DNA of 64,000 bases from Marinicella sp. (GTDB lineage: Bacteria > Pseudomonadota > Gammaproteobacteria > Xanthomonadales > Marinicellaceae): the NCBI GenBank assembly GCA_965230295.1, contig OZ246001.1:800001-864000 (forward strand). The letters are read 5' to 3'. Below are positions 46,172 to 64,000 of this stretch, in pieces. The notes beneath the pieces were generated by a model. It did not search any database and was not told where the DNA came from. It was given only the letters and a program-made list of their open reading frames with translations. Within the stretch, counting starts at the first letter, position 1; every line of letters begins with the position of its first letter. Position numbers and translations under genes: made by a program.

Positions 46172-47026
46172 ATGAATCATTCTTCTAAAAACGAAGTTGG
46201 CACTTTATATGTTGTGGCCACGCCTATTGGAAACCTCAAAGACATCACCTTCAGAGCCATTGAAGTACTCAAGTCTTGTGATTTGGTGGCTTGTGAGGAC
46301 ACCCGACACAGCCAACGTTTGTTTCAAGCCCATGACATTCGCAGTAAAACCAAGTCACTGCATCAACACAATGAAAACAGTGACTCAAGAAAAATCATCG
46401 ATTTAATCCTACAAGGTCAAAATATAGCTTTGGTTTCAGATGCCGGAACACCACTGATCAGCGACCCGGGATTTCCATTGGTTAAATTGGCACACCAGCA
46501 CGGCATTTCTGTGGTTCCTATTCCTGGTCCGTCTGCCATGGTTGCTTTGATGTCTGTTGCTGCCATGAACACCCAACCTTTCACATTTCATGGTTTTTTG
46601 CCACCCAAGTCACAACAACGGCTGCATGTTCTGGAAAGCTGGTTACCGCTGAACACCACCCATGCTTTCTATGAATCCTCACACCGGATTGTTAATACTG
46701 TTGATCAAATTGTGACTGTATTCGGTCCCCAAGCAGAAGTGGCCATGGGCCGAGAATTAACGAAAAAATTTGAACAGGTGTTCAGAGGAACAGCACAAGA
46801 ACTACAATGCCTCATCAATGAGGATAAAAACCAACAAAAAGGTGAATTTGTATTGGCCGTTCAGGGCGAATCTAAAGAAACCACTGAACAGTTAACCGCC
46901 AATCAAATAAAATTGGCCAACAACTTAAAGCAACATTTGCCCCCCAAAGTGGCGGCCAAGGTCGTCGCTGATCAATTTGGCATCAACAAAAAACTGGTTT
47001 ATGAATTCATGATAAAGCAAGGATGA
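46172..47026 (+). CDS. rsmI: 16S rRNA (cytidine1402-2'-O)-methyltransferase
   Basis: LYVVATPIGNL.DIT.RA, ACEDTR, VSDAGTPLISDPG, FYESSHR, RELTK.FE, KGEFV. Start moved to ATG 46172. Confidence 0.96.
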   Translation: MNHSSKNEVGTLYVVATPIGNLKDITFRAIEVLKSCDLVACEDTRHSQRLFQAHDIRSKTKSLHQHNENSDSRKIIDLILQGQNIALVSDAGTPLISDPGFPLVKLAHQHGISVVPIPGPSAMVALMSVAAMNTQPFTFHGFLPPKSQQRLHVLESWLPLNTTHAFYESSHRIVNTVDQIVTVFGPQAEVAMGRELTKKFEQVFRGTAQELQCLINEDKNQQKGEFVLAVQGESKETTEQLTANQIKLANNLKQHLPPKVAAKVVADQFGINKKLVYEFMIKQG

Positions 47027-47813
47027 ATTTAACCAATGCAGCCTCCCAACTTGGCCGATGTTGCTTAAAATACCTAAGCATCCCTTGCTTTTTCCAAACT
47101 TTGATCTGTTTGGGCAATTGTTTTGATTGGCCTTTGAGGTGTACCACTTCAACCGAAGGGTCATATAAGACATGCCCCCCGTCTTTTTGCAACCTGACGA
47201 ACAAGTCCAAATCTTCAAAGTGCAAAGGATAGCTTTCATCAAACCCTTTTATCTGTTCAAAAGCGGTTCTTTTCACCAATAAACAGGCACCATTGACTGC
47301 AGTCACTTTTATTATCCCTGCAAATTGTCCCGTATCATTGATGTTAATGCCTTGAAACCAAGACCATCGACTCAGTCCGGTCACATGAAACACGACCCGC
47401 CAGAAAGTCGGTAGCCGGCGCCTGGACGCGGCTTGCAAACCACCGTCTTCATTCAACACTCGACAGCCTATCAGGGCAGCCTTGGCATCATTTTTTAAAT
47501 TTTCAGACAACTTCTGCAGTTGTTGAACAGTCACAAAACAATCAGGATTGATTACCGCGATGAACTCAGCCTTCCCTTGCTTTGCACCCTGATTACAGGC
47601 CTTGGCAAAACCTAGATTCTCAGCATTTTTGATGATTGAGAGCGGCAAGTCCGACGGTAAATCTGCCATCGAGTCATCCACCGAAGCATTGTCAACCACC
47701 GAAATATTCAAACCTTCAGAACCGCCTTTCTGAAGGGTCTTCAGGCATTGGCCCAAGGCCTCACCCGAGTTGTGGTTCACCAAAATAACATCGATAGCAG
47801 GTATGGGGTTCAT
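47007..47813 (-). CDS. GT2 family glycosyltransferase (rhamnosyltransferase-like)
   Basis: VILVNHN, VVDNASVD, NLGFAKACNQG, INPD, GACLL, GFDE.Y.L.FEDLDL. Start ATG 47813 is ATGA-coupled to the upstream gene. Confidence 0.92.
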   Translation of the reverse strand: MNPIPAIDVILVNHNSGEALGQCLKTLQKGGSEGLNISVVDNASVDDSMADLPSDLPLSIIKNAENLGFAKACNQGAKQGKAEFIAVINPDCFVTVQQLQKLSENLKNDAKAALIGCRVLNEDGGLQAASRRRLPTFWRVVFHVTGLSRWSWFQGININDTGQFAGIIKVTAVNGACLLVKRTAFEQIKGFDESYPLHFEDLDLFVRLQKDGGHVLYDPSVEVVHLKGQSKQLPKQIKVWKKQGMLRYFKQHRPSWEAALVKFILALS

Positions 47814-49612
47814 TGTCCCAAACAAAATGCCCACAGTTTAGGCCACACTTCCATGGCTTCCACCACTTCTTTCAAGTCATGACGCGCTTTGGCTACACAT
47901 GATGCTGTATCCATGGTCTCATCCCAGTCTGTCAGAACAGGTGCTTGTGCAGATTTAACGGCCTTACCATTGGCTTGAATGATTTCACGCACATCGGCTT
48001 GCCAGTAAATCGGCGCATCAGGTACTTCATCAAGGATATTTTGTAATGACAACACCAGATTTGAACGGGTTTTGGTCATGTACTCATTCAAACGATTGGC
48101 CAAAGCCTGGTCTTCACAGGTACGCAAGTCATCTATGGCTGCCTTGATGTTTTCAAAACGTGCATTCACATCCAAGGTATAAATGTTGCCCAAAATTGAA
48201 AAAACATAATCCGCCACGAAGTTATTGAAGTTGGGCCTTCTTGCAATGTGATTAAAACCACTTCTTTCACGTTTACTGGTTTGGATGTGCCCCATCATCA
48301 ACGGAAAATGCAGTGAAACCTGATTGGGGTAACAACCCATCATCATGCAATTGAAAAAATGATCCTCATTTTTATTGATAGGCATCACAAATGGTGTCAA
48401 AGTACTGTTATCAAGACCCGATGGTGCGAAATTAGAAAAAGCCAAGGCTTGATAATGGGGAGAGTAGTGTAATAAATGTGACGCTTCAATGTTATCTAAA
48501 TAAGTTTCCCTGTCCTGCCAAAAAGCTTCACGCTGTTCTCCTTTGAGCAAGTACAGCCAATAATTACTTTCCGCTCTTGGGCTGCCCCATGTACCATTGC
48601 CAGTAGATTTGATGATCGAATCTTCACTTAAACGATTTAAATCCATCAAACGCCATCCATATAAATTGGAAGTGGTCTTATCTTCGCCCTCAGCCAACCA
48701 TTGTCCAAAGTGAATACCACATGCATCAACCATCTCTTGCAGTACATTTGTTTCTATCTTTTGACTCTTGTCCTTGATGTCCCTGATGTTCAAACCAAAC
48801 CCCACATCCAATGTGGCATCATCAGCCAAATCAACATTCAAAGGGTCATAATGTGCTGATTTACGTGGTTGAATCAAATAATCATCATCGAAGAATGTGA
48901 ACTTTTTACCTGCCAATGCCAACAAGGCAAAATTCCATACCCGGCCTCCGGTAAAGCCAGCTTGTTCGCTTAACAACCAATCAATTTCTTTGTGATGTTC
49001 AGTGAATTCATTTTTCAACATCGCAATGAATTGATTTTGCCATGACTGACCATGGTATTTGACATTGCACTTGGCATCCTGACAAATCTTTTGATTGGCT
49101 TCTTGTGATTTGATGTCTGAAGAATCATCAAAAACCAAAATGGTGTCATTGCCACCATGGTTCTGGAAATACTGGCTACATGAATCCAGCAACCGTTGTA
49201 AATTATCCGGTCTTTGACAAGTCCTGATCACCATACCTGCGTGTTGGATGTCTCGCTTGGGCGCATGTTTGTCTTTCACTTGATCAAGCCATTGTTGATC
49301 ACTGATCAACAATCCTTTATTTTGCAGAAAGCCCAGAACCTTTTCGATGGCTGCAGACTGACCTTTTAACTCAGGTATGTTGGCTTCAATCAACTGAATA
49401 TGCTCATGCATGGGTTTGAATTGTTGTGTCAGACCCATGGCTTGTAGTACTTGCATGGTCATCACATGATTGACACCAGTCCCATGGTCCATGAAAACCA
49501 GTTCCTCTTTTGACAGTTGTTGTACAGTGCCTGCTACTGACGCATATAAGGTCGGATCCACAGGTGCAGGTGTACTGATCTTCTGTTCGCCAAAATTAAA
49601 TTCAAATTCCAT
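47810..49612 (-). CDS. Uncharacterised 600-aa protein: N-terminal PqqD/RRE-like winged helix plus GT-A (GT2-like) domain
   Basis: ATG 49612 with AAGGAG RBS. GT2-like pattern VIRTCQRP..L.RLL.S, ILVFDDS, GG.VWN.ALL, FTFFDDD, NEDH. Confidence 0.65.
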   Translation of the reverse strand: MEFEFNFGEQKISTPAPVDPTLYASVAGTVQQLSKEELVFMDHGTGVNHVMTMQVLQAMGLTQQFKPMHEHIQLIEANIPELKGQSAAIEKVLGFLQNKGLLISDQQWLDQVKDKHAPKRDIQHAGMVIRTCQRPDNLQRLLDSCSQYFQNHGGNDTILVFDDSSDIKSQEANQKICQDAKCNVKYHGQSWQNQFIAMLKNEFTEHHKEIDWLLSEQAGFTGGRVWNFALLALAGKKFTFFDDDYLIQPRKSAHYDPLNVDLADDATLDVGFGLNIRDIKDKSQKIETNVLQEMVDACGIHFGQWLAEGEDKTTSNLYGWRLMDLNRLSEDSIIKSTGNGTWGSPRAESNYWLYLLKGEQREAFWQDRETYLDNIEASHLLHYSPHYQALAFSNFAPSGLDNSTLTPFVMPINKNEDHFFNCMMMGCYPNQVSLHFPLMMGHIQTSKRERSGFNHIARRPNFNNFVADYVFSILGNIYTLDVNARFENIKAAIDDLRTCEDQALANRLNEYMTKTRSNLVLSLQNILDEVPDAPIYWQADVREIIQANGKAVKSAQAPVLTDWDETMDTASCVAKARHDLKEVVEAMEVWPKLWAFCLGQ

Positions 49613-49614
49613 TG

Positions 49615-50487
49615 TTACTCCTTTCCAAACCACTTGATACAGCGGCCGATGATGGGATGTTTCAACCAAGTACGTTGTTTATCTATTAATGCCTCACAAT
49701 CTTTTTCAGCTTTGATGTGGGCCCGAATGACCGCGTTATAATGGCCATAAATTTGTTCAGATTGTTCAGAGAAGTGATAAAAATCTTTCTTGATCTCGGG
49801 ATCAATGGGCTGATCACTGGCAGCCACAATAAAGTAGACAGGGTTAAATTCAGGTCGGTCACTCAAACTGTTGTCTTGTTTCATACAGTCATATTGAACC
49901 TTATGGATGGGCCCATCTAACTGCCATATAGCCGATGAAAACATCAGTTTTTGCCCAAACCAGGCTGAATGCTCAAAAGATTGATCAATCAATTCCGCAA
50001 ACTCATTTTTGTACAGTTCCTTAACATGGTATTCGTTGTTAAAACCCGTTTTGTCTGAATACTCTTGTTTATCAGGTGTGGAAATCAATAACACACCATC
50101 AGGCTTGAGCACCCTTTTAAACTCTTTAACCAACTCGTCATGTTCAGCCAAATGCTCAAGGGTTTCAAATGAAACCACCACATCAAAGCTGTTTGTAGGA
50201 AAGTCCAATTTTAAGACATCACAAGCAACATATTTTAAATTGCTTTTGCGATAGGTCTGACTGGCATGGTTGATGGTTTGGTCTGAAATATCTACACCGG
50301 TCACTGATTTGGCTTTTTGCGCCAACACATGACTGCCATATCCTTCTCCACATGCGGCATCCAAAACATCTTTGTCTTTGACCCAACTTTGAGCCATGGT
50401 ATAGCGATGGTAATGCTCATACCATATTTCTCTTTCGCAATTGGGCAGGAATCGTTCTCCCGTAAATAACAAGCCTTCTTCAGACAT
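49615..50487 (-). CDS. Class I SAM-dependent methyltransferase (surface-glycan associated)
   Basis: FTGERFLP, EHYHRY, VLDAACGEGYG, GVDIS, FDVVVSFETLEH, LKPDG.L.ISTP, N.YH.KE. Confidence 0.9.
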   Translation of the reverse strand: MSEEGLLFTGERFLPNCEREIWYEHYHRYTMAQSWVKDKDVLDAACGEGYGSHVLAQKAKSVTGVDISDQTINHASQTYRKSNLKYVACDVLKLDFPTNSFDVVVSFETLEHLAEHDELVKEFKRVLKPDGVLLISTPDKQEYSDKTGFNNEYHVKELYKNEFAELIDQSFEHSAWFGQKLMFSSAIWQLDGPIHKVQYDCMKQDNSLSDRPEFNPVYFIVAASDQPIDPEIKKDFYHFSEQSEQIYGHYNAVIRAHIKAEKDCEALIDKQRTWLKHPIIGRCIKWFGKE

Positions 50488-50499
50488 GCATCACCTGAT

Positions 50500-51300
50500 T
50501 CAAAAAGCAGCTATTTTATCAACGATTGATTGTCTTAACTGCTTTAACGGGTCATTTTCGATGAATTTTTGCACCAGATGTAAATATTCCGGATGTTTTT
50601 CTAACAGGCGATCCATGGTATCCTGACTGGGTTTGAGTGACCGCTCTTTGAATGACTGGTTTCCTACATGTGCGACATAACAGTCATCCACCAAAACATT
50701 GCGTAAACCTACAGACTTAACCCGCAAAGAATAGTCATTTTCTTCACCATAGCCTAAACCAAACCTTTGCTCATCAAAGTACCCCGCTTGTGCTTTGGCA
50801 GCAGCAGTGATCAACATACAAAAACCAACGGCTGTTGGCAATTCAGGATACTGTGGCTGATGGTTTTCTGCCAATTGAACAGACAACACATCCAGTTGTT
50901 CAGGGATGGTGTTATTGTGTAATGTTTTTGGCAGCGAACATATTTCTGCATTGTTCGACCAAGGTGTGGCGGTACCCAAATTGCTCACATTTTTAATCAC
51001 TTCACGAAACCGATCCAGCCAACCTTCACTGACCAATGTATCGGAATTGAGTAAAACACTGTTTCCGGCATTCAGTTGAAGTCCCAAGTTGGCTGTTTTT
51101 ACGAAACCTAAATTTTGTGGGTTGTCTAACACCCTCCAATTGCTTGGCAAGTTGTCAAACAATGATTGAATTCTGCTGTCAGTGGATGCATCATTGATCA
51201 ACACCACATCATCATGGTTGTTGTGCCGCAATAATGTCTTGATCAGGTTACGTGTTGCTTCAAACGCGTTATAGATAGGAACTACGACTTGAATATCCAA
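50500..51300 (-). CDS. GT2 family glycosyltransferase
   Basis: VVVPIYNA, INDASTD, NLGFVKTANLG, LLNSDT, GFCM, GYGEENDY. Confidence 0.92.
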   Translation of the reverse strand: MDIQVVVPIYNAFEATRNLIKTLLRHNNHDDVVLINDASTDSRIQSLFDNLPSNWRVLDNPQNLGFVKTANLGLQLNAGNSVLLNSDTLVSEGWLDRFREVIKNVSNLGTATPWSNNAEICSLPKTLHNNTIPEQLDVLSVQLAENHQPQYPELPTAVGFCMLITAAAKAQAGYFDEQRFGLGYGEENDYSLRVKSVGLRNVLVDDCYVAHVGNQSFKERSLKPSQDTMDRLLEKHPEYLHLVQKFIENDPLKQLRQSIVDKIAAF

Positions 51301-51301: not shown

Positions 51302-52462
51302 TTACTTCCAATGCATTTCTAACTGACTGGTACCCAATTCTCTGGTCTTACCAGTTACCCGTAAATCTTTTTCATAGGTATCAATCATTTGAATATTTTC
51401 CGGGGTCATGGCGTGAAATTTAAATTGATAAGAACCGGGTAAAAGTTTCAACTGAGGCATTTCTACTTCATAGACCAGCATGCCGTCATTATCTTTCTGC
51501 GGCGTTGTGTGGTTAAGTTCTGAGTAGGTACCGTAAACGGCTTTACCATCATGGGTTACGATACCGATACAAATCCCAGGTATTTCATCATCAGGAGAAA
51601 ATACCTTAACCGTTAGAGTGATGTCGCTGCCAAAGGCAACTTCGCTGCAGGGTTGTCCGTTTTGGCAAATGCTGGCCTCATGAATGTGGTATGTGGTGCG
51701 GTTGACAGATGCACCTGAAGGCATAACATTCGGGTCAGTGATGGAAGCTTGATAAGCTTGTGTAACCTTAAACACATCACCATATTCCTTGATCGCCCCA
51801 TGCTCTAACCACACGGCTTTTGTACACAATTTTTGAACATGATAAATACTGTGAGAAACCAACAGCAATGTTCCACCTTCGCTCAAATAGTCATCAATCC
51901 ATTTCAAACATTTCAATTGAAAACTTTCATCGCCAACTGCCAAGACCTCATCGGTAATCAACAAATCCGGTTTGGTTTGGGTGATGACGGAAAAACCCAG
52001 CCTGACAACCATGCCTGAAGAATAGTTTTTAACCGGTTCATTGATGTAATCACCAATGGCAGCAAATTCAATCATGTTATGAATTTTCTGCTCAGCATCT
52101 TTACCTGTCAATCCAGCCAGGGCAGATGCCATTTTCAAATTTTCCAAACCTGTATACTCAGGATCAAATCCTGAACCCAGCTCCAACAAGGCGCCAATAC
52201 CACCATTCACTTTGAAGTGACCTGAGGTGGGTTGAATCACATTAGACAATATTTTTAGGAGGGTACTCTTACCTGCCCCATTCTTACCTATGATGGCCAA
52301 AGATTCCCCTTGATCTACGGCTAAATTGATGTCTTTTAAGACATGTGCACCATGTTCATCTGAACGATTCAACAAGATGTTTAACATGCCCCTGACACGC
52401 TGCTTGTTGGTTGCAACATGCGGATAAAATTTATTTAAATTTTTTATTTCTATCAATTGCAT
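51302..52462 (-). CDS. wzt: Polysaccharide ABC exporter ATPase with C-terminal carbohydrate-binding domain
   Basis: GKNGAGKST, LELG.GF, YSSGMVVRLGF, ITDEVLAVGD..FQ.KC, VSH. About 140-aa beta-rich Wzt_C extension. Confidence 0.93.
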   Translation of the reverse strand: MQLIEIKNLNKFYPHVATNKQRVRGMLNILLNRSDEHGAHVLKDINLAVDQGESLAIIGKNGAGKSTLLKILSNVIQPTSGHFKVNGGIGALLELGSGFDPEYTGLENLKMASALAGLTGKDAEQKIHNMIEFAAIGDYINEPVKNYSSGMVVRLGFSVITQTKPDLLITDEVLAVGDESFQLKCLKWIDDYLSEGGTLLLVSHSIYHVQKLCTKAVWLEHGAIKEYGDVFKVTQAYQASITDPNVMPSGASVNRTTYHIHEASICQNGQPCSEVAFGSDITLTVKVFSPDDEIPGICIGIVTHDGKAVYGTYSELNHTTPQKDNDGMLVYEVEMPQLKLLPGSYQFKFHAMTPENIQMIDTYEKDLRVTGKTRELGTSQLEMHWK

Positions 52463-53217
52463 CAGGCAAAGTCATCAAATCTAGGGGCTAATTTTTGAAA
52501 GAATCGATTACTTAAAAACAACAAGACCAATGCAGCCAAAGCAATATAAAATGACGAAGACCAATTCAATGGATTCAAATTGAATACCACATCATGGATG
52601 AAATTTACAATGGGCAATATTGGGTTCAACATAAAATAGGGCTTGGCTGAATCAGGAACTATGGTCCAGGAATAAATGATGGGTGTACAAAAAAACACCA
52701 AGGGCAACAATGCCGATATGATTTGTTTTAAGTCGCGATAAAACACATAAAAAGCTGAAAACAATAAACTCAAAGCGACTGCCAATACATACAGAATGAC
52801 CAATGGAATCAACAATAAAAACAAGTCCAGTGAAGGTGCCAATCTGCCCATCAACATCAATAGAATCAAAATAGCAATAAATCCGATGCCATGCAGAATA
52901 AAATTGGCCGTTGTTCCTGCCAATACAACATGGCGCAAGTCCATTTTAACTTTTCCTAACAAGTCTTTTCGATTGACCACAGCAGTGATTGAATTGAGTA
53001 CTGATTCAGAAAATGCCATCCACGGCCAAAGGCCAATGGCCAAATAAGTAATGAATGCATTATCAGGTAGATTTGGCACCCGTGCTTTAAACAGGATGCC
53101 AAATACAAAATTATAAATCAGTAATGTGATCAGAGGATGAACAATGATCCAAACCAACGCCGAAGAATTTCCAAGATAGCGATCCTTGATCTCTTTCTTC
53201 AAAAAGAATTTAAACAT
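52462..53217 (-). CDS. wzm: Polysaccharide ABC exporter permease
   Basis: K.RY.G.....W..V.PL, GLWPW..F.E, RDL.Q, F.TPIIY, LNP, F.D. Confidence 0.92.
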   Translation of the reverse strand: MFKFFLKKEIKDRYLGNSSALVWIIVHPLITLLIYNFVFGILFKARVPNLPDNAFITYLAIGLWPWMAFSESVLNSITAVVNRKDLLGKVKMDLRHVVLAGTTANFILHGIGFIAILILLMLMGRLAPSLDLFLLLIPLVILYVLAVALSLLFSAFYVFYRDLKQIISALLPLVFFCTPIIYSWTIVPDSAKPYFMLNPILPIVNFIHDVVFNLNPLNWSSSFYIALAALVLLFLSNRFFQKLAPRFDDFA

Positions 53218-54159
53218 TTATTCTTCGATGAATACTTTATATCTTTCGAATATATGTGCGATCAGTTCAGGGTTTACCTCAATTTCATGCTGTACTTTCG
53301 CATTGATGATACTTTGAAATTTTCTTTTCACAGCTTTTTTCTTGAGTTGTTGGTATATTTCAGTTTTGGCATCTGCTAATTTGCCAGGTTCTGACGGTAC
53401 AATCTTGTTAACCCTGATGATATAACGGGTACCTTTGTCGGTTAATACCTCTGGAATCACGCCCAATGGGGCATTGAACACTTTTTCCTTAAATGCATAA
53501 TTAAATTGATTCTCCCTGAATTCACCCCAATGTCCTTCATTGATACTTTTACTGGGATCAGTTGAGATTTCAGATGCTTTGATTTGGAATGATGCCTGGT
53601 CAGAAGATTTAAGTTCATTCAGTATTGCGTCTGAATCATTTGTATCAACCTCATCTAACATGATGACAGACAAATCTCTTTTGGCTGGCTTAATGAATTT
53701 AGCTTTATTCACCATGAAATACTCTTTGATCGAGTTTTTCAACATTTCTTCAGTGGTGGTTTCCTCAAGGTATGCCAACAAAGTCTTGTAATATTCTCGT
53801 TTTATGACATAAGACCTGACCGATTGTTCCATGGTTTTAGATTCTAGATCTAGCATCTCTAAGAAGACAGTTTCCGGTATCCATTCATCTTCATTGACTG
53901 TTTTAATGACATCCTTAAAACGATCCAAATCTTTAAGATCAGAATTCAGAATGTGTTGGTAAACAATGTTGATGTTCAATAAAGTGAAAACATTTTTTTC
54001 TATTTGTTGCTGTTGAACGGCAAACCCACCCCTCTTGTCTTTTTTCAACAGATATACATAAGCATCTAAATCAGACAACGGCACTTCAATGCCACCTTGT
54101 TTAACCAGGTAAGCATCCTGGTTAAACAAGGAAGAGATCAATAAGATCAATAATTTCAT
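53218..54159 (-). CDS. Exported parvulin-type (PpiC/SurA-like) foldase, degenerate active site
   Basis: Short N-terminal hydrophobic segment. YF..NK.KF..P, F...A.E.S.DPS...N.G..G.F, VF.A..G, IIRV, L.DAK.EI. Confidence 0.75.
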   Translation of the reverse strand: MKLLILLISSLFNQDAYLVKQGGIEVPLSDLDAYVYLLKKDKRGGFAVQQQQIEKNVFTLLNINIVYQHILNSDLKDLDRFKDVIKTVNEDEWIPETVFLEMLDLESKTMEQSVRSYVIKREYYKTLLAYLEETTTEEMLKNSIKEYFMVNKAKFIKPAKRDLSVIMLDEVDTNDSDAILNELKSSDQASFQIKASEISTDPSKSINEGHWGEFRENQFNYAFKEKVFNAPLGVIPEVLTDKGTRYIIRVNKIVPSEPGKLADAKTEIYQQLKKKAVKRKFQSIINAKVQHEIEVNPELIAHIFERYKVFIEE

Positions 54160-55379: not shown

Positions 55380-55441
55380 GGGTTTTCTCATTTCATCTAT
55401 AAACTTCGGATTATACAAGATGTTGTGTTAATTTTTTATTC

Positions 55442-55476
55442 AAAAAAAAAGGACAAGATCAGATCTTGTCCTTTTT
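55442..55476 (-). terminator. Strong Rho-independent terminator after the S-layer-like gene
   Basis: Perfect inverted repeat AAAAAGGACAAGATC-A-GATCTTGTCCTTTTT, with T9 on the minus strand. Confidence 0.85.
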
Positions 55477-55495: not shown

Positions 55496-56905
55496 TTATT
55501 GAGAAACAACATTACCTTTGTGTACGAACAGACCAGCGTACTGAGCCAGTAAGCCAGCACCAGCATTACCATTGGTAAATTGCTGTGCTGAGAAACCAGT
55601 TACAGGTAAGCCCAAGTAAGCAGGACCTGCAGTAGGAGCTGTAACAAATGCCAAATCACTGAAAGACATGTTAGCCCAACCATTCTCAGTAGCAGCACCA
55701 CTTGGAGTGGTAACAGTTACTAAGTTGTCAGAACCCATGATTGATGATTCTGCACCAGCAGCACCGCCAGGTAACATGAACTCAACAACGTTGACTTCTT
55801 TACACAAGCTTGGGTTTGCACCAGCAGGAGGACGTGGAGATACACCGCCAACTGTCAAGATTTCCAATTGCTCTTCTCTGTCCCAAATAGTTAATTCAAA
55901 CTCGTGACAAGAGTTAACACCATCCCAAACATCATTGAATGGAGGAATTGCAGCAGCAGGAGCTACGTCAACGTGGAAACGCTTAGTTGGGAAAGAAATA
56001 ACCCACTCAGATTTACCAGCAACCAATGAATCTAAAGCGTACTCATTGTAAACAGATTGTCTGGTGAACAATGAAGAAATAGACTCAGCACCTGTAGCGT
56101 AAGTAGAAGTTTGTGCAGCACCTTCAAAGAAAACTGTAGAGCTTTCAATACCTTGTGCTAACGATGGGAACAAGCTGCCTGGCTCAGAGTGAGTACCCAG
56201 ACCTAACTCCCAAAACTCATCAACTGCAATCGCATCATAAGTCATGGCCAAACCTTCAGCTACATTTACGATAGAAGCAGAACCGAACAAACCGCCAGTT
56301 ACTAAATCTTCATCAGCCAATGTGTCATAAAGACCATTGTCAGACCAATCGCCTTCGATGGTGCCACAAGAAGCTGGAACACCAGATCCACCGTGATCAG
56401 CAGCAGTAACAGTACCACCATTGAAAGTAGCCATTTCGATGATTTCGAAGTGACCATCAGTAGCACGACGCATGCTCATGTTAGTAGGATCAAGGTCAGC
56501 ATCGATTGTGAATGGCAAGAACTCTTGGCCACCTTTAATCAAGAAAGGAGCACAAGAAGTGTCAGTTGTAACGTGAGCAGCAGAAGGCTCACCAACGTGA
56601 CCAGCTTGAGTTGAGTTGGTAGGAACCAAAGCACCAGTCCAAACGTCAAAAGCTGACAAGTAAACGTTAAAGTCAAGAACCTCTAAAGAGTTTTCACCTT
56701 CCAAGAAACGTACTTTAACAGCTTTGGTGTCAGCAGTCGTGTTAACAACTGAGTACAAAGTGTTCAAACCGTTATTAACTGAGTAATAAGGGTAAATCAG
56801 TACTTCACCAGTACCTTCTGGGTTAACAAACTGTTGTGCATTTGCCATGCCCGCGACACCCGCGATACCAGCAACAACAGCCATAGTTAGTTTATTTTTT
56901 TTCAT
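55496..56905 (-). CDS. Highly expressed secreted cell-surface protein, probable S-layer protein
   Basis: Sec signal MKKNKL...ANA with GGAG RBS. N-terminal VNPEGTGEVLIYPYYSV...VVNT....KAVKVRFLEG.NS.EVLDFNVYLS.FDVWT, recalled as the proteobacterial cell-surface / NpdA-like family. Acidic and rich in A/G/S/T/V. Extreme codon bias and its own terminator. Confidence 0.72.
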   Translation of the reverse strand: MKKNKLTMAVVAGIAGVAGMANAQQFVNPEGTGEVLIYPYYSVNNGLNTLYSVVNTTADTKAVKVRFLEGENSLEVLDFNVYLSAFDVWTGALVPTNSTQAGHVGEPSAAHVTTDTSCAPFLIKGGQEFLPFTIDADLDPTNMSMRRATDGHFEIIEMATFNGGTVTAADHGGSGVPASCGTIEGDWSDNGLYDTLADEDLVTGGLFGSASIVNVAEGLAMTYDAIAVDEFWELGLGTHSEPGSLFPSLAQGIESSTVFFEGAAQTSTYATGAESISSLFTRQSVYNEYALDSLVAGKSEWVISFPTKRFHVDVAPAAAIPPFNDVWDGVNSCHEFELTIWDREEQLEILTVGGVSPRPPAGANPSLCKEVNVVEFMLPGGAAGAESSIMGSDNLVTVTTPSGAATENGWANMSFSDLAFVTAPTAGPAYLGLPVTGFSAQQFTNGNAGAGLLAQYAGLFVHKGNVVSQ

Positions 56906-56992
56906 TTCTAACTCCAAATTTAATAAAAATATCAGGGCTATTTTAAAATATCCCCGCTCATATGAACGAAGCTATACAAGATAGCAAAGTGA

Positions 56993-57072: not shown

Positions 57073-57489
57073 TCACTCACCCTTTGGCACAAAATACCAC
57101 TTTCCTTCCACCTGAATCCAATTCTCTGAAACCTCAGTGTTGACAGCCACACCGCCCAGGCTTCTCTTGGAAAAACTGTACTCATAATCAAGTTTTATTT
57201 TGACCTCACAAATCGTTTCCTCTACACAGTTTGCACTGACGAATTCGCCTTTGGTCCATTTCATATTCATCTGTGCCGTCAGCATCCTCAATGAAAACGC
57301 TTCTGCGGTTTCAGTTTCCTTGTGTCCAGGAGAAAAATATTCATAGGCACTTTCAAAATCTTGTTCAATGATGGCAAGCCACCTCGATTCTACACTAGAC
57401 TGAAGGTCTTCAGTTTGTTGGCAACCAACCAGCATCATCACCGATAGCAAAGCGGTCCATTTCATAAAACTTCTATTCTTTTTATTCAT
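57073..57489 (-). CDS. Small lipoprotein coupled to gspD (NTF2-like fold suspected)
   Basis: LVGC lipobox. RW.AI...DF..AY.YFSPG, C....C, E.W....GKWYFVP. Start uncertain (57507, 57489 or 57465). Confidence 0.75.
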   Translation of the reverse strand: MNKKNRSFMKWTALLSVMMLVGCQQTEDLQSSVESRWLAIIEQDFESAYEYFSPGHKETETAEAFSLRMLTAQMNMKWTKGEFVSANCVEETICEVKIKLDYEYSFSKRSLGGVAVNTEVSENWIQVEGKWYFVPKGE

Positions 57490-59626
57490 CATTTTCTTCT
57501 GTTTCAATTTTATTTACCTTTATGGGCTGTAAGCCACGGAATTTTTTGGCATATTCTCTGGTCACCAATCTGGCTTGCTCAGGGTTTTCAACCACAGTTG
57601 GCGTGATCAACAGCATCAACTCAGTGCGGTTTGATGATTTACTCTTCGACCCAAAAGCATTCCCCAGGACGGGAATCCTGCTTAACAATGGGAAACCAGA
57701 TCGAGACAGCGTTTCTGCTTCTCTGATCAAGCCACCCATCACAATGGTGTTGCCACTTTGTACAGCAATTTCAGTATTCAAAGCACGGGTCGAAATCGGC
57801 GGAGTGGTGGTACCTTCAGTAGGTGTCCCGGGAGCACTCACGTCTTGACTGATTTCCATATAGACCAATCCACCTGGGTTGACCCTTGGAGTGATGTCAA
57901 CCTGAACACCAGTCTGGATAAAACGGGTGCTGGATATGGTGCCATTGTTGACATTTCCACCGTTGTTAATGGAGCCTACATTGGTGATGGGTATTTGGTC
58001 ACCTACATTAATGGTGGCATTCTTGTTATTCAAAACCAACATGGAAGGACTTGACAACAAGGAAACCCGGCCTTCTTTCTCCAAAGCCGTTAACCTTGCT
58101 TCAGCATCGGTACCCAAGAAACTGTACGACACCAAACTCCCATTGATTCTGGCTCCTGAGGTGCTGAAATTATAAGGCACATCTTTGGGTTCAGGATTCA
58201 CGCTGTCGCCACCATCTATCTCACTGGAACCATCACCAAACAACAAATCCATGCCATATGAAATCGAATCATCCAAAGTCACTTCGATGATTTTCAGTTC
58301 AACCAAGACCTGTAGTGGCTCAATATCTAACCGTTGAATCGCTGATAAGATTTTTTCATAATCAACAACCCCGGCCTTGATCAACAGTTGATTAGAGTCT
58401 TCAATGGCAGAAATGAAAATGTCGTTGATGCCCGAGCCAGCTGTATTGGTGGCCCTGCGCCGATTGGTGTTGGTGCTTTTCGCGCCACTTGAACTGACTT
58501 CTTTGCCTTGAGCACCTGGCGCCACGGAGCCGCCACTGGCTTTTCGAGATGAACTGGAGCCACTGCTGCCTCCAAACACATCATTCAGATAAGCAGCCAA
58601 ATCGTCCGCTTTGATGTTTTTCACACTGTAGACATATAAATTAGACGCCCCGTCTGCATCAGCACGATCCAACCGTTCTATCCATTTTTTGGCCTGATGT
58701 AAATAATCTTCTTGAGGCGTGATGACCATCACTGCGTTCAAGCGTTCTAATGGCAAAAACCGAAACATACCAGCCAAGGGATTGTCTGCCCCTTCGCCAA
58801 ACAAGGCTTCTAACTCAACCAAAATATCCGCTGACTCAACTTGCTTCAGGTAAAAGATTCCGGTAGACATGCCTGCCAACCAATCCACATCAAATATTTC
58901 AATGGTATCTAAGTAGTTGGTTAATTCGCTGTTGGTTCCAGATAAAAACAAAATATTTCTGGCATTGTCCGCTTTGACCACTGCGCCATCTTTGGCATAT
59001 GGCTCCAAAATCTTTTCCATCTCAGTGGGTGACACATAAGTCATAGGCACGGCCAAAACTTGATAGCCGCCACCTTGAGTGACGCGGTTTAACTTGGGTG
59101 TCAACAAGCCTTTAATCGCTTGTTTTTCTGGCAGCACATGATAACGATCTTCAACCATCACCAATGCAGCATTGTTCCAACTCAACATCATTTCCAAAAT
59201 AGGGATGATTTGTTTCTTGGAAACCGGCTTGGCAGTGGCAAAGGTTACTTTCCCGTTAACCCCAGGAGCGATCACATAATTTTCTTTCAAGACCTCCCCT
59301 AAAATAAAATGCACAACAGCCTGTAATGATTCCCCTTCAAAGTTAAAAGTCACAGCTCCTTGCTCTGAAACAGTGGGCCTTGATCGGGTGGCTGCATCGT
59401 AATTGATGAATTCGCCGGTTCCTGGATACAAGTCCTCTTTGGTGTCACGCTTGACAGACTCTTCCCCACTGTTGAACACTTCACCTGAGTAAATGGTTGA
59501 TTCCACACCTTCTAAATAGTCAGAATTGTCCAGTTCTCTACTGAGGTCTTTAGGTTGAGTCACACAACCACTGACGGTGATTGCCAGCAAGCTTAAAACC
59601 ATTAAGTTGTTACGTTTTTTTATCAT
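57482..59626 (-). CDS. gspD: Type II secretion secretin, XpsD-type lipoprotein
   Basis: VSGC lipobox, FNFEGESLQAVV..ILG, IFDVDWLAGMS, QVLVE..IIEV, A.INVGDQIP, TG....TPRVN, P.LS.IP.LG..F, RTEL...ITP. Confidence 0.95.
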   Translation of the reverse strand: MIKKRNNLMVLSLLAITVSGCVTQPKDLSRELDNSDYLEGVESTIYSGEVFNSGEESVKRDTKEDLYPGTGEFINYDAATRSRPTVSEQGAVTFNFEGESLQAVVHFILGEVLKENYVIAPGVNGKVTFATAKPVSKKQIIPILEMMLSWNNAALVMVEDRYHVLPEKQAIKGLLTPKLNRVTQGGGYQVLAVPMTYVSPTEMEKILEPYAKDGAVVKADNARNILFLSGTNSELTNYLDTIEIFDVDWLAGMSTGIFYLKQVESADILVELEALFGEGADNPLAGMFRFLPLERLNAVMVITPQEDYLHQAKKWIERLDRADADGASNLYVYSVKNIKADDLAAYLNDVFGGSSGSSSSRKASGGSVAPGAQGKEVSSSGAKSTNTNRRRATNTAGSGINDIFISAIEDSNQLLIKAGVVDYEKILSAIQRLDIEPLQVLVELKIIEVTLDDSISYGMDLLFGDGSSEIDGGDSVNPEPKDVPYNFSTSGARINGSLVSYSFLGTDAEARLTALEKEGRVSLLSSPSMLVLNNKNATINVGDQIPITNVGSINNGGNVNNGTISSTRFIQTGVQVDITPRVNPGGLVYMEISQDVSAPGTPTEGTTTPPISTRALNTEIAVQSGNTIVMGGLIREAETLSRSGFPLLSRIPVLGNAFGSKSKSSNRTELMLLITPTVVENPEQARLVTREYAKKFRGLQPIKVNKIETEENDE

Positions 59627-60333
59627 TGTTTATTTCCTTTCGCGGCATTTGCCCTCATTTGCGCCCTGCGCTCAGCTATTTTCTTTCTGATTTCCTCAGC
59701 ACTGTTTTTTTGTGCTTTTTGCTTATTTGAGTCAGACTTGTTCTTATTCTTTCCATTGTTTTTACCTTTGTTGTTTCTGCCCTTATTTTTGGCTGCATTC
59801 CTTGTCGCTTTGCCCAGCTGGCCACTGAAGACTTCAAGTTCCAACTCAACAGGCTCCTCTCCTTCTGCAACAAATGTAACTGCCCTTGGTTTGATGTCAC
59901 CAACCACCCACAATCCTTGATCTCCAGGCAAAGGCATGCCTTGTTTTAAAGTAATGCGCTCTCGACTTAATTCATCAAAAACCATGGCATAACTGTTTTC
60001 CTCCGTGATGATGATACTGGTCACTTTGGCTTTCAAAGGTTCAGCTTCTATCTCAGGTTCTTTTTCTTCCACTTCAAGATCCTCTGGCGGAGCCACATAA
60101 GGGGTGCGATCCATACTGAACAAAGGTGCATCTGTAATTTGCACAATGGCCTTGTCATCAATCACGGCAGTTTCGACATCTTCAACATCCAGCTTATTCA
60201 ATGTTGAAGCATCAAAAACTTCTGCTTCAAGTGACGCAGTTCCACGCCCCCAACCAAACATCTGCATGGCAGCCAACAACAGCAAAATGCCAATCAAAAC
60301 CAGCAATGTATTGGTGAATAAATTATTTTTCAT
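59623..60333 (-). CDS. gspN: Type II secretion protein N (XpsN, GspC-like)
   Basis: Single N-terminal TM, PLFS.DR.P, position between gspM and gspD. Lys/Asn-rich linker and IR.KI.ERRAQMR tail. Confidence 0.75.
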   Translation of the reverse strand: MKNNLFTNTLLVLIGILLLLAAMQMFGWGRGTASLEAEVFDASTLNKLDVEDVETAVIDDKAIVQITDAPLFSMDRTPYVAPPEDLEVEEKEPEIEAEPLKAKVTSIIITEENSYAMVFDELSRERITLKQGMPLPGDQGLWVVGDIKPRAVTFVAEGEEPVELELEVFSGQLGKATRNAAKNKGRNNKGKNNGKNKNKSDSNKQKAQKNSAEEIRKKIAERRAQMRANAAKGNKQ

Positions 60334-60934
60334 CGTCTTTTTCAATTGGATTTTTTAAATACGCATACAAATCAAATCGAATCTCTAAATTTTCTGGGGC
60401 TGCTTGAGCGGCGTTTTTGCGATAGCGATTAACATTGCGAGATTCAACCCGCAAATCGCTGACAAACAAAGAAGGGGTGTTCTCTTCTATCAACTCAACA
60501 ATTTTGACAAAGATTTCATATTGGCAGCGCATTCTAACACGCAAAGTAATTTTTTCAAATTGCTCAGGCTCTCTGTCTTGGGTGGGTGATTGGCTGACAA
60601 TTTGACATTTGGCGGTTTCATCGGTTTGTTGATTCACGATGTTCTTAAAAATTGAAGTGATCTCAGCATTGCCTAAGTTTTTTGAATCCGCTTGTAAAAA
60701 CTCATTGTTTGAGCCCACTGCTTTTTTGACATCATCCAATAGTTTTCGCAAATCCGGAGTTTTGGCCGCTTCATTGATGTACTGCTGTCGCGACTCATTC
60801 AATGAAGTGATTTCTTCATTCAAATCTGCATGAGCCACAAAAAACCAATGAAAAAACAAAAAGTATACTGTCGTCAACACCAACAACAAAACCAAAATGG
60901 CAGACCACCGACTGACCCTGGGATCAAGATTCAT
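60323..60934 (-). CDS. gspM: Type II secretion protein M
   Basis: TM plus coiled coil plus VRMRC, IE...P.LFV..L, L...FDL.AYL. Synteny. Confidence 0.85.
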   Translation of the reverse strand: MNLDPRVSRWSAILVLLLVLTTVYFLFFHWFFVAHADLNEEITSLNESRQQYINEAAKTPDLRKLLDDVKKAVGSNNEFLQADSKNLGNAEITSIFKNIVNQQTDETAKCQIVSQSPTQDREPEQFEKITLRVRMRCQYEIFVKIVELIEENTPSLFVSDLRVESRNVNRYRKNAAQAAPENLEIRFDLYAYLKNPIEKDDEK

Positions 60935-62075
60935 TGCCTGTCTCCTCTTCATTGTTGTCTTTAAAATCAGACCTGATGGTGAACTTTTCTTTGTTGGTTC
61001 GTGGGTCCTGGGTCACGTTGCCAATAATTTCAGGTTCATGCCACATGGTTGATTGATTTAAAATAGGAATCAAAGCATTTGCATTGTCTGACTGTCCTAC
61101 CACTTCTAACCGTTCTTTATCTATCATGATTCGAGTCAAGTAAGTATTCATCGGAATTTTTCGGGTCAGTTCATTGAACATCAACAAGCGACTTGGGGTG
61201 TTCTTTTTGAGGTTGCCTAAGAAATTGGCTGCTTGAATGGACTCATTCAACTGGTTTTCAATCAGCTTGGCCCTTCTGGCATCTTTTCGTAATTCAGTGA
61301 CCTGGGATTCCAATGACTCAATCTTGACTTTCTTATTATCCAAAGACGAGTACATCACAAACCACAACAACACCAAGGCGACCACAGTCAAACCGGCATT
61401 CCATTTTATACTGGTCCAATCTTTTTTCTTGCGGACTTCCTTAGGCAGTATATTGATACCCAAGGCTTGAGGTGCTTCTTGGCTACCCATATTGACATCA
61501 ATACCAGACAATTGAACCCCTTTGGCTTCAAACAAAGCAACCAATGCATGTAAATCCTGCTTCTTAATGGCGCAGATGGTTATGGGGAATTTCTCACTGC
61601 CTTCAACCATTTCTCCTTTGATGTAAGCGAACACCACATCTTCTGCTTTGAACGGTATGTACTTATCCAATTCAAATGTCAACACAGATTCAATGTCATT
61701 AACTATAGCCACAGGCATGGCAACATTGCGAACCAATACTTTAGACTCATCCAATAAACAAGTGACTTCGGTGGCCAATTCAGCGGTGGCTAAATGGTGA
61801 TTCAACTGATGCCACCATTCTTTTCCTTCAACAGAATCATCAAAAGTCAGTGTGTTCATGGCACCACCTTCCTGTTGCCAAATTTTGACGTCTTCATCTT
61901 TACCCTGAGTATCGGTTAAAAACAGAGCCAATGATCTGGGAAACAATGTGGCTTGGTATTCATTGGGAACCATGGCCTTGAGTTCACTTGTCCACCAAAC
62001 CATAAATGCATGGATGCTTGATTCGTGATACCACTGCACCATGGGTTCAGTAAATTTTTCTATATAAGTTGTCAT
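60924..62075 (-). CDS. gspL: Type II secretion protein L (PilN domain)
   Basis: F..WW..EL, L.FELDK..PF....V, GINILP, TM, ELT..IP..TYL, G.S..A..LI..L. Confidence 0.87.
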   Translation of the reverse strand: MTTYIEKFTEPMVQWYHESSIHAFMVWWTSELKAMVPNEYQATLFPRSLALFLTDTQGKDEDVKIWQQEGGAMNTLTFDDSVEGKEWWHQLNHHLATAELATEVTCLLDESKVLVRNVAMPVAIVNDIESVLTFELDKYIPFKAEDVVFAYIKGEMVEGSEKFPITICAIKKQDLHALVALFEAKGVQLSGIDVNMGSQEAPQALGINILPKEVRKKKDWTSIKWNAGLTVVALVLLWFVMYSSLDNKKVKIESLESQVTELRKDARRAKLIENQLNESIQAANFLGNLKKNTPSRLLMFNELTRKIPMNTYLTRIMIDKERLEVVGQSDNANALIPILNQSTMWHEPEIIGNVTQDPRTNKEKFTIRSDFKDNNEEETGNES

Positions 62076-62953
62076 TTGTGCTCGTTATCTCTCCAACGTA
62101 CCACCCGATAGGGTCGTCCTTGTAAATTACCACCCATTCTGATGGTGGCATCAATTTGGGCAAATTGTTTGTTTGGTAATGTCGCCTTGCTGATGATGCT
62201 GAAAGTTGTTCCGCCTCCCCTGAACTGACCAGAATATCCTTCAGCCAGAAGCGGCAACTCCATATTGACATCATCGATGTTGTGTCTTTCTGTTAAGTAG
62301 TTATCGGCCATGTCTGCCGTTATGCCATCAATCGACATCAACACTTCTTTAGGAGCGAATGCCAGGTTGATGTTTTTCCTGCCAGAATAAACTGTCAAAG
62401 CCGGTTCGATTTTTTTATAAAGCTCGTAACTGATGTCCATCACTTGGATCAATTCAGGCACAGTATCAAAAGGCGCATCCTTCGCACCATGTTGATAACC
62501 AGCTGCAAAATAATCCCCATCTTCGGCACCGGCTAATCGAATTTCTTCATCGGCATCTTTCCAATCAAGAATTTTATCAACCAATCCAATCGCTTCATCA
62601 TAATCGATGCCTACTGAGGCAAACAAACCAATCAAAAGTTCCTCTCCAGCTTGGTTCAAATCAATTTTACCTGATTCGTCAGTCACCTGAATTTCAATTT
62701 GGGCCCCTTCCAATTCGAACTTGTGCACCCGGCCATCAGCAATCCACCTTGTTTCAGGATCAGGGTTTCTGAGCTCGTACACTGTTCTGTTTAATCCGGC
62801 TTCTGCCAAAAACCTGGCTTGGGTTTCATTGAACAAAATACGTGACTGTAAACTTTCTGTCCTGGCGGACAAAGCAAAACTACCCGCAATGACACTCATC
62901 AACAAAGCCACCCACAAGACCAGGACCAATGCAATGCCATGCTGCTTGTTCAT
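62072..62953 (-). CDS. gspK: Type II secretion minor pseudopilin K
   Basis: G/IALVLVLW prepilin site, A...AEAG, DESGKIDLN, ILDW.D, F....EL..V, ININ-like NINLA. Confidence 0.93.
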   Translation of the reverse strand: MNKQHGIALVLVLWVALLMSVIAGSFALSARTESLQSRILFNETQARFLAEAGLNRTVYELRNPDPETRWIADGRVHKFELEGAQIEIQVTDESGKIDLNQAGEELLIGLFASVGIDYDEAIGLVDKILDWKDADEEIRLAGAEDGDYFAAGYQHGAKDAPFDTVPELIQVMDISYELYKKIEPALTVYSGRKNINLAFAPKEVLMSIDGITADMADNYLTERHNIDDVNMELPLLAEGYSGQFRGGGTTFSIISKATLPNKQFAQIDATIRMGGNLQGRPYRVVRWRDNEHK

Positions 62954-63651
62954 TGAGTATCTCCAGCTGTTCTGCGGTTATTCTGCAACATGTTTAAGGT
63001 ACTGTTTCTGCGTCGGCTTGATGTACTTGAACCATCAACCTGTACAGCCACCTGAAGCAGCGGCCAACGCTCTTTTGCGGACCGCTGCATTTCCAAATCA
63101 AGCTGCACCATCAATGGCATAGCCATTGGGTTTTCCAGTTCATTGACCCACTCTGTTGGCAAGCCTTCTTCATCCACTTCGATGAAGGCAAATGCGCCAT
63201 CTCTTATGTTTTCTAACAACACAATGGGCTCTGCTGTATCAAAGGCGGATTGCTCATCCTCGTCGTCATAATTACTGACCAGCCCGTGGGTAAACTGTAA
63301 CAGTTTGCCGCCATCGGCATTAACCAATTCAAGCTTTTGTATGTGAGGGCCGCCAGAACCAAGGTAACCTGGCATTTGTGCCACAAAGGTGATCGAATTT
63401 TCATCACCCATAAATTTCAGCAGTTCACCTTCATCTGAGAAAGCCACGCCAATACCCATGGCCCTGGATATTTGGTGTCGAATGATGCCCTGAATGACTC
63501 GCATTTCATTGATGGCAGTGATCCGCTGCTCACCTTTTTCAGCCGTTCTGCGACCTGAGTCTATACCTGAAAAGATCATGGCCATGATCATGGCCAACAG
63601 TGTAAACACCACAATCACTTCTATTAAAGTAAAACCAGCGTTGCGTTTCAT
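62950..63651 (-). CDS. gspJ: Type II secretion minor pseudopilin J
   Basis: G/FTLIE N-methylation site, FVA.MPGYLG.GGP. Synteny. Confidence 0.9.
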   Translation of the reverse strand: MKRNAGFTLIEVIVVFTLLAMIMAMIFSGIDSGRRTAEKGEQRITAINEMRVIQGIIRHQISRAMGIGVAFSDEGELLKFMGDENSITFVAQMPGYLGSGGPHIQKLELVNADGGKLLQFTHGLVSNYDDEDEQSAFDTAEPIVLLENIRDGAFAFIEVDEEGLPTEWVNELENPMAMPLMVQLDLEMQRSAKERWPLLQVAVQVDGSSTSSRRRNSTLNMLQNNRRTAGDTQ

Positions 63652-64000
63652 TTGCCCAATCCTTGTGCTTCAGAGTAATCTGGGGTCATGGCCTTGAGGG
63701 TGAAAAAGTCGACACTGCGGCGATTGTCATGCCCGTCAAACCAACTCAATGTCAATTTAACTTTAAACAATTCCACTGGAGCAAAATCCATTTCCACATT
63801 GCCTTCGTATGGCACATCATAAGGCTGGATCACCACATCCCAGTCCACATCTTCTTCAAAGCTTCCAGAAACAGAACCTTCTTCAACGGGTATGATCAAT
63901 CCCACTTCATCCATTTTACTTTGGGCCAACAAGGCAATTTTAGAACGCTCTGAAGATTTAATGGTGTTGGTACTGGAATTGGATAAAATTTCCAACACCA
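63648..64000 (-). CDS. gspI: Type II secretion minor pseudopilin I, 5' end outside window
   Basis: A.L.AQSKMDE.G, EG...G.F....W, L....L...W. Directly upstream of gspJ with ATGA overlap. Confidence 0.8.
   Translation of the reverse strand, partial: VLEILSNSSTNTIKSSERSKIALLAQSKMDEVGLIIPVEEGSVSGSFEEDVDWDVVIQPYDVPYEGNVEMDFAPVELFKVKLTLSWFDGHDNRRSVDFFTLKAMTPDYSEAQGLGK

Follow-up and report, generated by a model that had tools for sequence, protein, structure and literature searches.

S-layers of the NpdA type are widespread in Beta- and Gammaproteobacteria. NpdA itself is the S-layer protein of Delftia sp. Cs1-4: a mutant is without S-layer, the protein forms oligomers that are stable in sodium dodecyl sulfate, and its assembly depends on lipopolysaccharide (LPS), which an earlier reconstitution also required (PMC3110197). 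For Paracidovorax citrulli, the S-layer role of NpdA has been confirmed by deletion, proteomics and cryo-electron microscopy, with 12 gsp genes of a type II secretion system (T2SS) located upstream. The same study lists orthologues in 62 beta- and 49 gammaproteobacterial species, including Rudaea cellulosilytica, Tahibacter, Chiayiivirga, Thiothrix and Nitrotoga (PMC10765051). Here we describe a block of 17 genes within a stretch of 64,000 nucleotides (the window) from Marinicella sp. (assembly GCA_965230295.1, contig OZ246001.1), corresponding to positions 800001-864000 of a 4.0-Mb single-contig genome whose closest named protein relatives are Marinicella species. The block is probably this genome's copy of the NpdA S-layer locus, with a pathway of export and assembly as proposed below. 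Homology and gene linkage identify the system as the NpdA/T2SS S-layer locus known from earlier work, not as a new design. Coordinates refer to the window unless given as genome positions.

Two further S-layer systems resemble the block. The A-layer locus of Aeromonas salmonicida comprises wzm, the sps genes of a T2SS, vapA and wzt, and the A-layer is tethered by LPS (PMC4483657). An earlier sequence-only reading of the window had invoked this precedent, an S-layer gene between sps genes and an ABC (ATP-binding cassette) transporter, and its account agrees with the excerpt of that paper. The likeness is one of gene arrangement: in both cases the S-layer gene follows a T2SS within a Wzm/Wzt polysaccharide cluster, with the LPS tether described for Aeromonas. 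However, the T2SS genes and vapA of Aeromonas sit between wzm and wzt, whereas wzm and wzt are adjacent and downstream in Marinicella; a small lipoprotein and a parvulin-type gene are unmentioned in the excerpt of PMC4483657. The second system is Slr4 of Pseudoalteromonas tunicata, an abundant marine S-layer protein without Pfam domain, whose gene lies immediately after a conserved T2SS operon (PMC7821379). The protein considered here is likewise marine and gammaproteobacterial, lacks a Pfam domain and is encoded just after a T2SS operon. Slr4, in contrast, has 578 aa and occurs mainly in Alteromonadales-type genera and Vibrio, and the two proteins are likened by description only. As a lead, the S-layer subunit of a Burkholderiales species has been termed a remote slr4 homologue (bioRxiv 10.1101/2025.11.11.687616), which hints that the Slr4 and Burkholderiales S-layer subunits may be related. 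Neither the Slr4 paper (PMC7821379, main text) nor the examined part of the NpdA carrier table (PMC10765051) names Marinicella.

The NpdA-family protein and its conserved gene block

All 17 genes of the block are located on the minus strand between 47007 and 64000, overlapping or abutting for the most part, which bears out the co-orientation given in the sequence-only reading. The gene in question and its terminator are as follows.

55496..56905, minus strand: npdA-family S-layer protein gene, 469 aa (NpdA homology, codon adaptation, terminator)
55446..55476, minus strand: intrinsic-terminator-like hairpin with 14-bp stem and T run, directly after the npdA stop codon

The 469-aa protein starts with the ATG at 56905, with GGAG upstream. 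Its N-terminus, MKKNKLTMAVVAGIAGVAGMANA followed by QQ, reads by eye as a Sec signal peptide with the end ANA/QQ. A promoter-like site at 57060-57031 upstream of the gene is a weak lead. The terminator that had been claimed for this gene is found as the hairpin with T run at 55476..55446.

The protein has no match in Pfam or NCBIfam, and none of the 32 family members (the protein and 31 relatives) matches Pfam. A BLASTP comparison with the homologue of Rudaea cellulosilytica DSM 22992 yields 40% identity over 506 columns (E 1e-94). The genome of this strain contains a single NpdA homologue in the same gene order as here, and Rudaea is a listed npdA carrier with an imaged S-layer (PMC10765051). 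Comparison of the 32-row alignment with 13 NpdA-type proteins of Comamonadaceae by hhalign gives a probability of 100 (E 8e-44, 434 columns). The records behind these 13 proteins carry titles such as Delftia, Acidovorax delafieldii 2AN and Paracidovorax. A protein from a Burkholderiales genome is identical to a Delftia tsuruhatensis record, and its relatives include Delftia acidovorans. The named-record relatives of the 469-aa protein include the genera of the published carrier list. According to these alignments, the 469-aa protein is a member of the experimentally established NpdA S-layer family. The S-layer assignment of the sequence-only reading is therefore supported, whereas its notion of a different S-layer family and a new design is not, since the family is that of the known NpdA/T2SS locus. 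Full-length homology, the Sec signal peptide, the lack of a Pfam family and the gsp cluster upstream are shared with Delftia and P. citrulli. The length differs, with 469 aa here versus about 510-600 aa in Comamonadaceae (lengths of open reading frames (ORFs), with starts unchecked).

The codon adaptation index (CAI) of the T2SS-linked npdA copy is 0.78, rank 10 among 2836 ORFs of at least 150 aa and on par with EF-Tu. The reference consists of 39 ORFs around two EF-Tu genes, taken by position as the tuf, RNA polymerase and ribosomal-protein operons. The protein had been called highly expressed, and codon usage supports this as the sole line of support. The second EF-Tu copy (genome 2742516-2743704) is matched by its model in two pieces (1-254 and 252-394) in different frames, possibly by a frameshift or an assembly error.

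The arrangement of the block is conserved across relatives. In a first sample, the locus proteins were compared by tblastn with the best match in each of 16 relatives from 12 families of the order: gspD, the lipoprotein gene and an NpdA homologue follow each other in this order in 16/16 relatives, and wzm and wzt are present in 15, the sixteenth stopping at a contig end. A horizontally acquired island is not favoured, because the base composition is unbroken and the block is present in all of these relatives. In a second sample, each locus protein was searched with jackhmmer against the ORFs of 116 loci (the 16 order relatives, 78 loci found by scanning named genomes, and further ones obtained at class and order level). 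The 116 loci contain 128 NpdA-like genes, 80 of which are flanked by at least 8 kb on both sides; for 67 of these 80, gspD is found upstream on the same strand. The 67 T2SS-linked loci contain the lipoprotein (67), the peptidyl-prolyl isomerase (PPIase; 67), wzm (65), wzt (65), the methyltransferase (59), the Cys-rich protein (55), the 619-aa protein (44), and the GT2 glycosyltransferases at 50500..51300 (38) and 47007..47834 (49). The 13 well-flanked genes without gspD consist of eight tandem Marinicella paralogues, one case where gspD was simply undetected, and four others, three of which (L110, L112, L116) retain the lipoprotein beside the NpdA-like gene.

The block order is common to loci of Delftia (L129), Thiothrix (L117, L123) and Nitrotoga (L107). 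The neighbourhood comparison proposed in the sequence-only reading thus shows T2SS, lipoprotein, PPIase and wzm/wzt as recurrent constituents of the 67-locus set, and chance adjacency of T2SS, npdA and wzm/wzt is rejected because of these counts. The placement of an S-layer gene between a T2SS and a Wzm/Wzt glycan cluster is supported by the NpdA homology and by the arrangement conserved across orders. Parts that had been regarded as extras of this locus are indeed present, but they are not special to it: the lipoprotein, the chaperone, wzm, wzt and the methyltransferase also occur at the Delftia (L129) and Thiothrix (L117) loci. The npdA loci therefore point to a fixed parts list of lipoprotein, PpiD-like chaperone, and Wzm/Wzt glycan genes with methyltransferase, joined in one lineage by an Ig (immunoglobulin)-like accessory protein. 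A fixed downstream module at npdA loci appears to be previously undescribed. We found none of its parts named in the main text of PMC10765051, where a lipoprotein, polysaccharide or glycosyl terms, and wzm do not occur; the supplementary Fig. S5 of that study may draw downstream genes.

In the proposed pathway, the 469-aa protein would be the major S-layer subunit, made in large amounts and exported by Sec. The PpiD-like parvulin chaperone would handle it in the periplasm, and the adjacent Xps-type T2SS would carry it across the outer membrane. The lipoprotein would bind the conserved N-terminal beta-sandwich of NpdA and would thereby help with docking or hand-over close to the secretin, or serve as an anchor point in the membrane. 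The downstream genes would build a glycan that is exported by Wzm/Wzt, probably methyl-capped and ligated to lipid A-core, and the lattice would assemble on this glycan. The Ig-like Cys-rich protein, which is not found at every npdA locus, may be an accessory surface component. If true, the parts list would supply a genetic basis for the old finding that NpdA assembly needs LPS.

Several points weigh against this reading. An S-layer in this organism (lattice, abundance, localisation) is predicted from genes alone, and no paper in the literature collection searched mentions Marinicella together with an S-layer. The homology comparison used named-record relatives in place of the mutated proteins AAVE_RS20655 (P. 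citrulli) and DelCs14_2799 (Delftia Cs1-4). The counts of conserved neighbours overstate independence, because the loci were picked by NpdA similarity and many are kin. Eleven paralogues in a single genome are unusual for a single-lattice protein. The AF2 (AlphaFold2) model of the 469-aa protein is all-beta and confidently predicted (pLDDT 88, pTM 0.88), but Foldseek returns no match at E <= 0.001. The best VIA-align row, with Z 8.8 over 104 residues, is a beta-sandwich of 116 residues with no known function, and a sequence search of solved structures gives chance-level rows only, with no solved homologue; the predicted fold adds nothing on function because it has no clear solved counterpart. 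The CAI of the lipoprotein gene is low (0.58, 5th percentile) and therefore argues against one anchor per subunit, with which the overlap of this gene with gspD likewise does not fit. Finally, of three genomes from one family of the same order that lack an NpdA match, two still carry an Xps cluster (gspE to gspD) orthologous to the one here, so that this T2SS may be a general one.

Secretion system and glycan genes

The T2SS genes within the window are given below.

63648..64000, minus strand: gspI (XpsI-like minor pseudopilin), truncated at the edge of the window; XpsI E 4.4e-19
62950..63651, minus strand: gspJ, minor pseudopilin; PRK08808 E 1.5e-27, below cut-off
62072..62953, minus strand: gspK, minor pseudopilin; NF037980 E 4.6e-25, below cut-off
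60924..62075, minus strand: gspL-like assembly platform protein; weak PilM/GspL matches, position kept in relatives
60323..60952, minus strand: gspM (XpsM type); NF040576, 109.6 bits versus a cut-off of 60
59623..60345, minus strand: 240-aa protein in XpsN/GspC position ("gspN"); position only, conserved in relatives
57482..59626, minus strand: gspD secretin; TIGR02517, 454.5 bits versus a cut-off of 351

The complete gspI encodes 150 aa and reaches genome position 864100. Upstream, outside of the window, the cluster continues with gspH (XpsH E 3.6e-35), gspG (GspG 97 bits), gspF (XpsF E 2e-130) and gspE (GspE 637 bits), followed by a gene for a membrane protein of family NF041730 and purL. 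Together, E, F, G, H, I, J, K, L, M, an N-like gene (by position) and D form a complete Xps-type set in one operon with the secretin last. The Xps type named in the sequence-only reading is borne out by XpsF, XpsH, XpsI and an XpsM-type GspM as best matches. Its gene names hold for D, M, K, J and I by family support and, weakly, for L; the name GspN is by position, as the 240-aa protein matched no family in the scans. Compared to the 12 gsp genes reported for P. citrulli (PMC10765051), 11 Xps-type genes (E to N, then D) are found here, with no PDZ-type gspC.

A second set of T2SS genes is present elsewhere in the genome and was found in part: gspC, D, E and F lie near 655-660 kb and gspG, H, I, J and K near 2.608 Mb, while an L or M gene of this set was not located. 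A count of T2SS clusters, as suggested earlier, thus confirms a second set, of which only gspCDEF and gspGHIJK were located. Among the alternatives to the proposed pathway, it is quite possible, with our leaning slightly the other way, that the T2SS described here is the cell's general Xps system and the NpdA-like protein merely one abundant substrate encoded adjacent to it. The sequence-only reading had raised this as a caveat, and the caveat stands: the best family matches are Xps-type (XpsF, XpsH, XpsI, GspM/XpsM), the other set is incomplete as located, and the two same-order genomes that keep the gspE-to-gspD cluster (L186, L187) have neither an NpdA nor a lipoprotein match, their gspD being about 40% identical to the one here (tblastn). 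The authors of the NpdA study likewise leave the dedication of the T2SS open and call for mutational analysis of the linked T2SS (PMC10765051). The orthologous Xps cluster in NpdA-less genomes means that the T2SS need not be exclusive to NpdA. However, gspD is immediately upstream of npdA in 67 of the 80 well-flanked cases from several orders, the second gene set speaks for a division of labour, and a general role concerns exclusivity only, being compatible with NpdA as an exported S-layer protein. We conclude that this T2SS likely exports NpdA, for which exclusivity is not required.

The cargo module looks lost in L187 and L186, because both genomes keep gspE to gspD while the lipoprotein was not found: by comparison of the loci, the block from the lipoprotein gene to wzt seems to be deleted and the T2SS kept. 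In L187, two GT2 genes related to the end of the Marinicella locus follow directly after gspD.

The glycan genes are located at the downstream end of the block.

52462..53217, minus strand: wzm, ABC-2 polysaccharide export permease; KpsM/Wzm-like, at 65 of 67 linked loci
51302..52462, minus strand: wzt, ATPase with C-terminal Wzt_C carbohydrate-binding domain; PF00005, and PF14524 with 32.4 bits versus a cut-off of 30.4
50500..51300, minus strand: GT2 glycosyltransferase; family scan, at 38 of 67 linked loci
49615..50487, minus strand: SAM (S-adenosylmethionine)-dependent methyltransferase; PF08241 (Methyltransf_11) E 2.6e-26, at 59 of 67 linked loci
47810..49669, minus strand: 619-aa protein of unnamed family with weak GT-A-like signal; at 44 of 67 linked loci, possibly with a later true start
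47007..47834, minus strand: GT2 glycosyltransferase, last gene of the block; PF00535 E 8.6e-18, at 49 of 67 linked loci

The block holds what would be the set for a capped glycan, consisting of the ABC-2 permease, an ATPase with C-terminal carbohydrate-binding domain and a methyltransferase. In Escherichia coli O9a, an O-polysaccharide is exported by Wzm/Wzt, with a carbohydrate-binding domain of Wzt and a terminating methyltransferase. By analogy, the methyltransferase is a candidate for chain capping, and its presence together with Wzt_C suggests that Wzm/Wzt export a capped polymer. The Marinicella locus shares with O9a the Wzt with Wzt_C, and its methyltransferase is encoded two genes downstream; it has no WbdD-like kinase or coiled-coil ruler, and the glycan is predicted from genes alone. 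The 619-aa protein had been labelled an "RRE-like" glycosyltransferase. We drop this label: the protein has a sub-threshold GT2 match only (21.3 bits versus 23.3), its nearest atlas clusters are unnamed, and an "RRE-like" domain is without support in the family scan and the cluster search.

A second ABC-2 polysaccharide export cluster is located at genome positions 2371000-2380000 (approximately). Besides a short Wzt that lacks the C-terminal domain, it encodes an FkbM/RfbT-like methyltransferase, an AT3-SGNH acyltransferase, a sulfotransferase and a GT4. Its product may be the ordinary O-antigen or a capsule, so that the glycan linked to npdA could be a distinct and conserved polymer. The alternative, a tentative possibility that we regard as doubtful, is that wzm, wzt and the glycosyltransferase genes make an ordinary O-antigen or a glycan attached to NpdA, and not a dedicated anchoring polymer. 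In Gram-positive S-layer glycoprotein loci, the S-layer gene is followed by wzm, wzt and a methyltransferase, which would be in line with attachment. A single WaaL-type gene is present in the genome, at 2.544 Mb, as would suit an ordinary O-antigen, and the S-layer-linked glycan of Aeromonas salmonicida is the normal LPS O-antigen (PMC4483657). Against this, the second ABC-2 cluster carries different tailoring genes, no oligosaccharyltransferase gene is found within the block, and wzm and wzt follow npdA at 65 of the 67 linked loci in different orders, in contrast to the usual variability of O-antigen loci.

The lipoprotein between gspD and npdA

A further constituent of all 67 T2SS-linked loci is encoded between the secretin gene and npdA.

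57073..57507, minus strand: small lipoprotein with lipobox LVGC; at 67 of 67 T2SS-linked npdA loci, complex prediction

The lipoprotein gene and the end of gspD share 26 nt. The protein has no Pfam or NCBIfam match, and five of 30 relatives weakly match DUF4864. In the three same-order genomes without NpdA match, the lipoprotein was not found in two and is marginal in the third (E 0.0066).

A complex of mature NpdA (residues 28-473, numbered from the TTG at 56917, from which 4 is subtracted for the numbering of the 469-aa protein) and the lipoprotein (residues 30-144) was predicted with scores of 0.80, 0.80 and 0.79 in three runs, while all three controls score 0.00. Among solved complexes, 58 of 80 reach this mark, compared to 2 of 110 mismatched pairs. 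At least 91% of the contacts are common to the runs, and the pLDDT of the partners is at least 87. The predicted contact surface on NpdA consists of residues 50-58, 92-100, 116-118, 213-226 and 448-459, all within regions where family conservation is highest. In a comparison of the 11 paralogues of the genome, the conservation of interface residues exceeds that of the remaining ones (0.64 versus 0.50), and 29 of 5000 random residue sets reach the interface value. The structure prediction supports a binding of the lipoprotein to the conserved N-terminal domain of NpdA. This predicted contact appears to be previously undescribed and is concrete and testable.

A small lipoprotein gene next to a secretin gene classically encodes a pilotin. 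A pilotin-like helper of GspD instead of an NpdA partner would accord with the overlap of both genes and with the codon adaptation of the lipoprotein gene, which is low as for T2SS genes. We nevertheless consider this explanation clearly unlikely: the predicted complex with NpdA passed against clean controls, NpdA-like genes keep the lipoprotein gene as a neighbour at the three loci without gspD in range, and the lipoprotein was not found in the two genomes that have an orthologous secretin and no NpdA match. In addition, the N-terminus of GspD, ending VSGC, looks like a lipobox of its own, and lipidated secretins can do without pilotins. With the lipoprotein as predicted partner of NpdA, a role in docking or hand-over close to the secretin, or as a nucleation point, fits better than an anchor for each subunit.

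A joint scenario, which as a whole is rather unlikely to hold, would combine these elements. The NTF2-like lipoprotein would be the missing outer-membrane receptor of NpdA-type S-layers, gripping the N-terminal beta-sandwich at the exit of the secretin, and the linked Wzm/Wzt genes would provide a dedicated methyl-capped polymer for lattice growth. The ten paralogues would keep the docking surface as interchangeable coat subunits, and the Xanthomonas-type Xps system would descend from an S-layer export machine after loss of the cargo module.

Paralogues and accessory genes

The genome contains ten further full-length NpdA-like genes with 31-53% identity to the linked copy, dispersed or in tandem arrays, and all with signal peptides.

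Genome 233751-235193, 494636-497468, 1418106-1419566, 2432775-2436986, 2579249-2580706, 2682126-2683586 and 3720947-3722338: ten paralogues

None of the ten has a T2SS, lipoprotein or wzm/wzt of its own nearby, and their CAI ranks (1005-2719 of 2836 ORFs) are near or below the median. The NpdA family is thereby extended to marine Marinicella, with 11 copies of which one alone looks highly expressed, an expansion that appears to be previously undescribed; several copies in some genomes, namely npdA carriers with two or three, have been reported (PMC3110197). That the 469-aa protein is another secreted or surface protein (an adhesin or binding protein) that forms no lattice here, as might be read from the ten scattered paralogues with signal peptides, the uninformative predicted fold and an S-layer predicted from genes alone, is very improbable in view of the full-length NpdA homology, a gene arrangement as in organisms with imaged S-layers (PMC10765051), a codon adaptation among the top 10 of 2836 ORFs, and the multi-copy carriers already on record. 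Candidatus Nitrotoga sp. 1052 (the genome of L107) has four NpdA-like genes, one T2SS-linked and three in tandem about 40 kb off on the same contig; an expansion of paralogues is thus not confined to Marinicella.

Two genes are located between npdA and wzm.

54156..55391, minus strand: secreted Cys-rich accessory protein, about 411 aa from ATG 55391; structure model, at 55 of 67 linked loci
53218..54159, minus strand: PpiD-like parvulin-type PPIase/chaperone with hydrophobic N-terminus; Rotamase_3 E 1.3e-8, best NCBIfam match PpiD-like

The Cys-rich gene, which lies between npdA and the PPIase gene and sets this locus apart from the NpdA system of Delftia and P. citrulli, probably starts at the ATG at 55391, as read from the sequence, with a TGTATAAT promoter motif (by sequence reading) upstream at 55417-55410. 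In its structure model (pLDDT 84), a signal peptide is followed by two Ig/PKD-like domains (72-163 and 168-252) and, at the C-terminus, by a Cys-rich beta domain. The Ig/PKD-like domains match many surface proteins with Z of about 8-9; such matches are too generic, and an assignment of a role from the fold was dropped. For the Delftia, Thiothrix and Rudaea loci, Pfam confirms the parvulin (Rotamase) domain in the product of the gene lying between npdA and wzm.

As further differences to the described NpdA system, the Marinicella genome carries the ten additional paralogues and, upstream of gspE, the gene of family NF041730 ("exosortase H-associated membrane protein"; 202 aa, genome 868007-868615, minus strand, 163 bits). 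A homologue was not detected at the Delftia or Nitrotoga loci. The exosortase H gene is about 1.5 Mb distant, at genome 2414702-2415169. In five of five same-order relatives examined, a homologue of the NF041730 gene is located immediately upstream of gspE.

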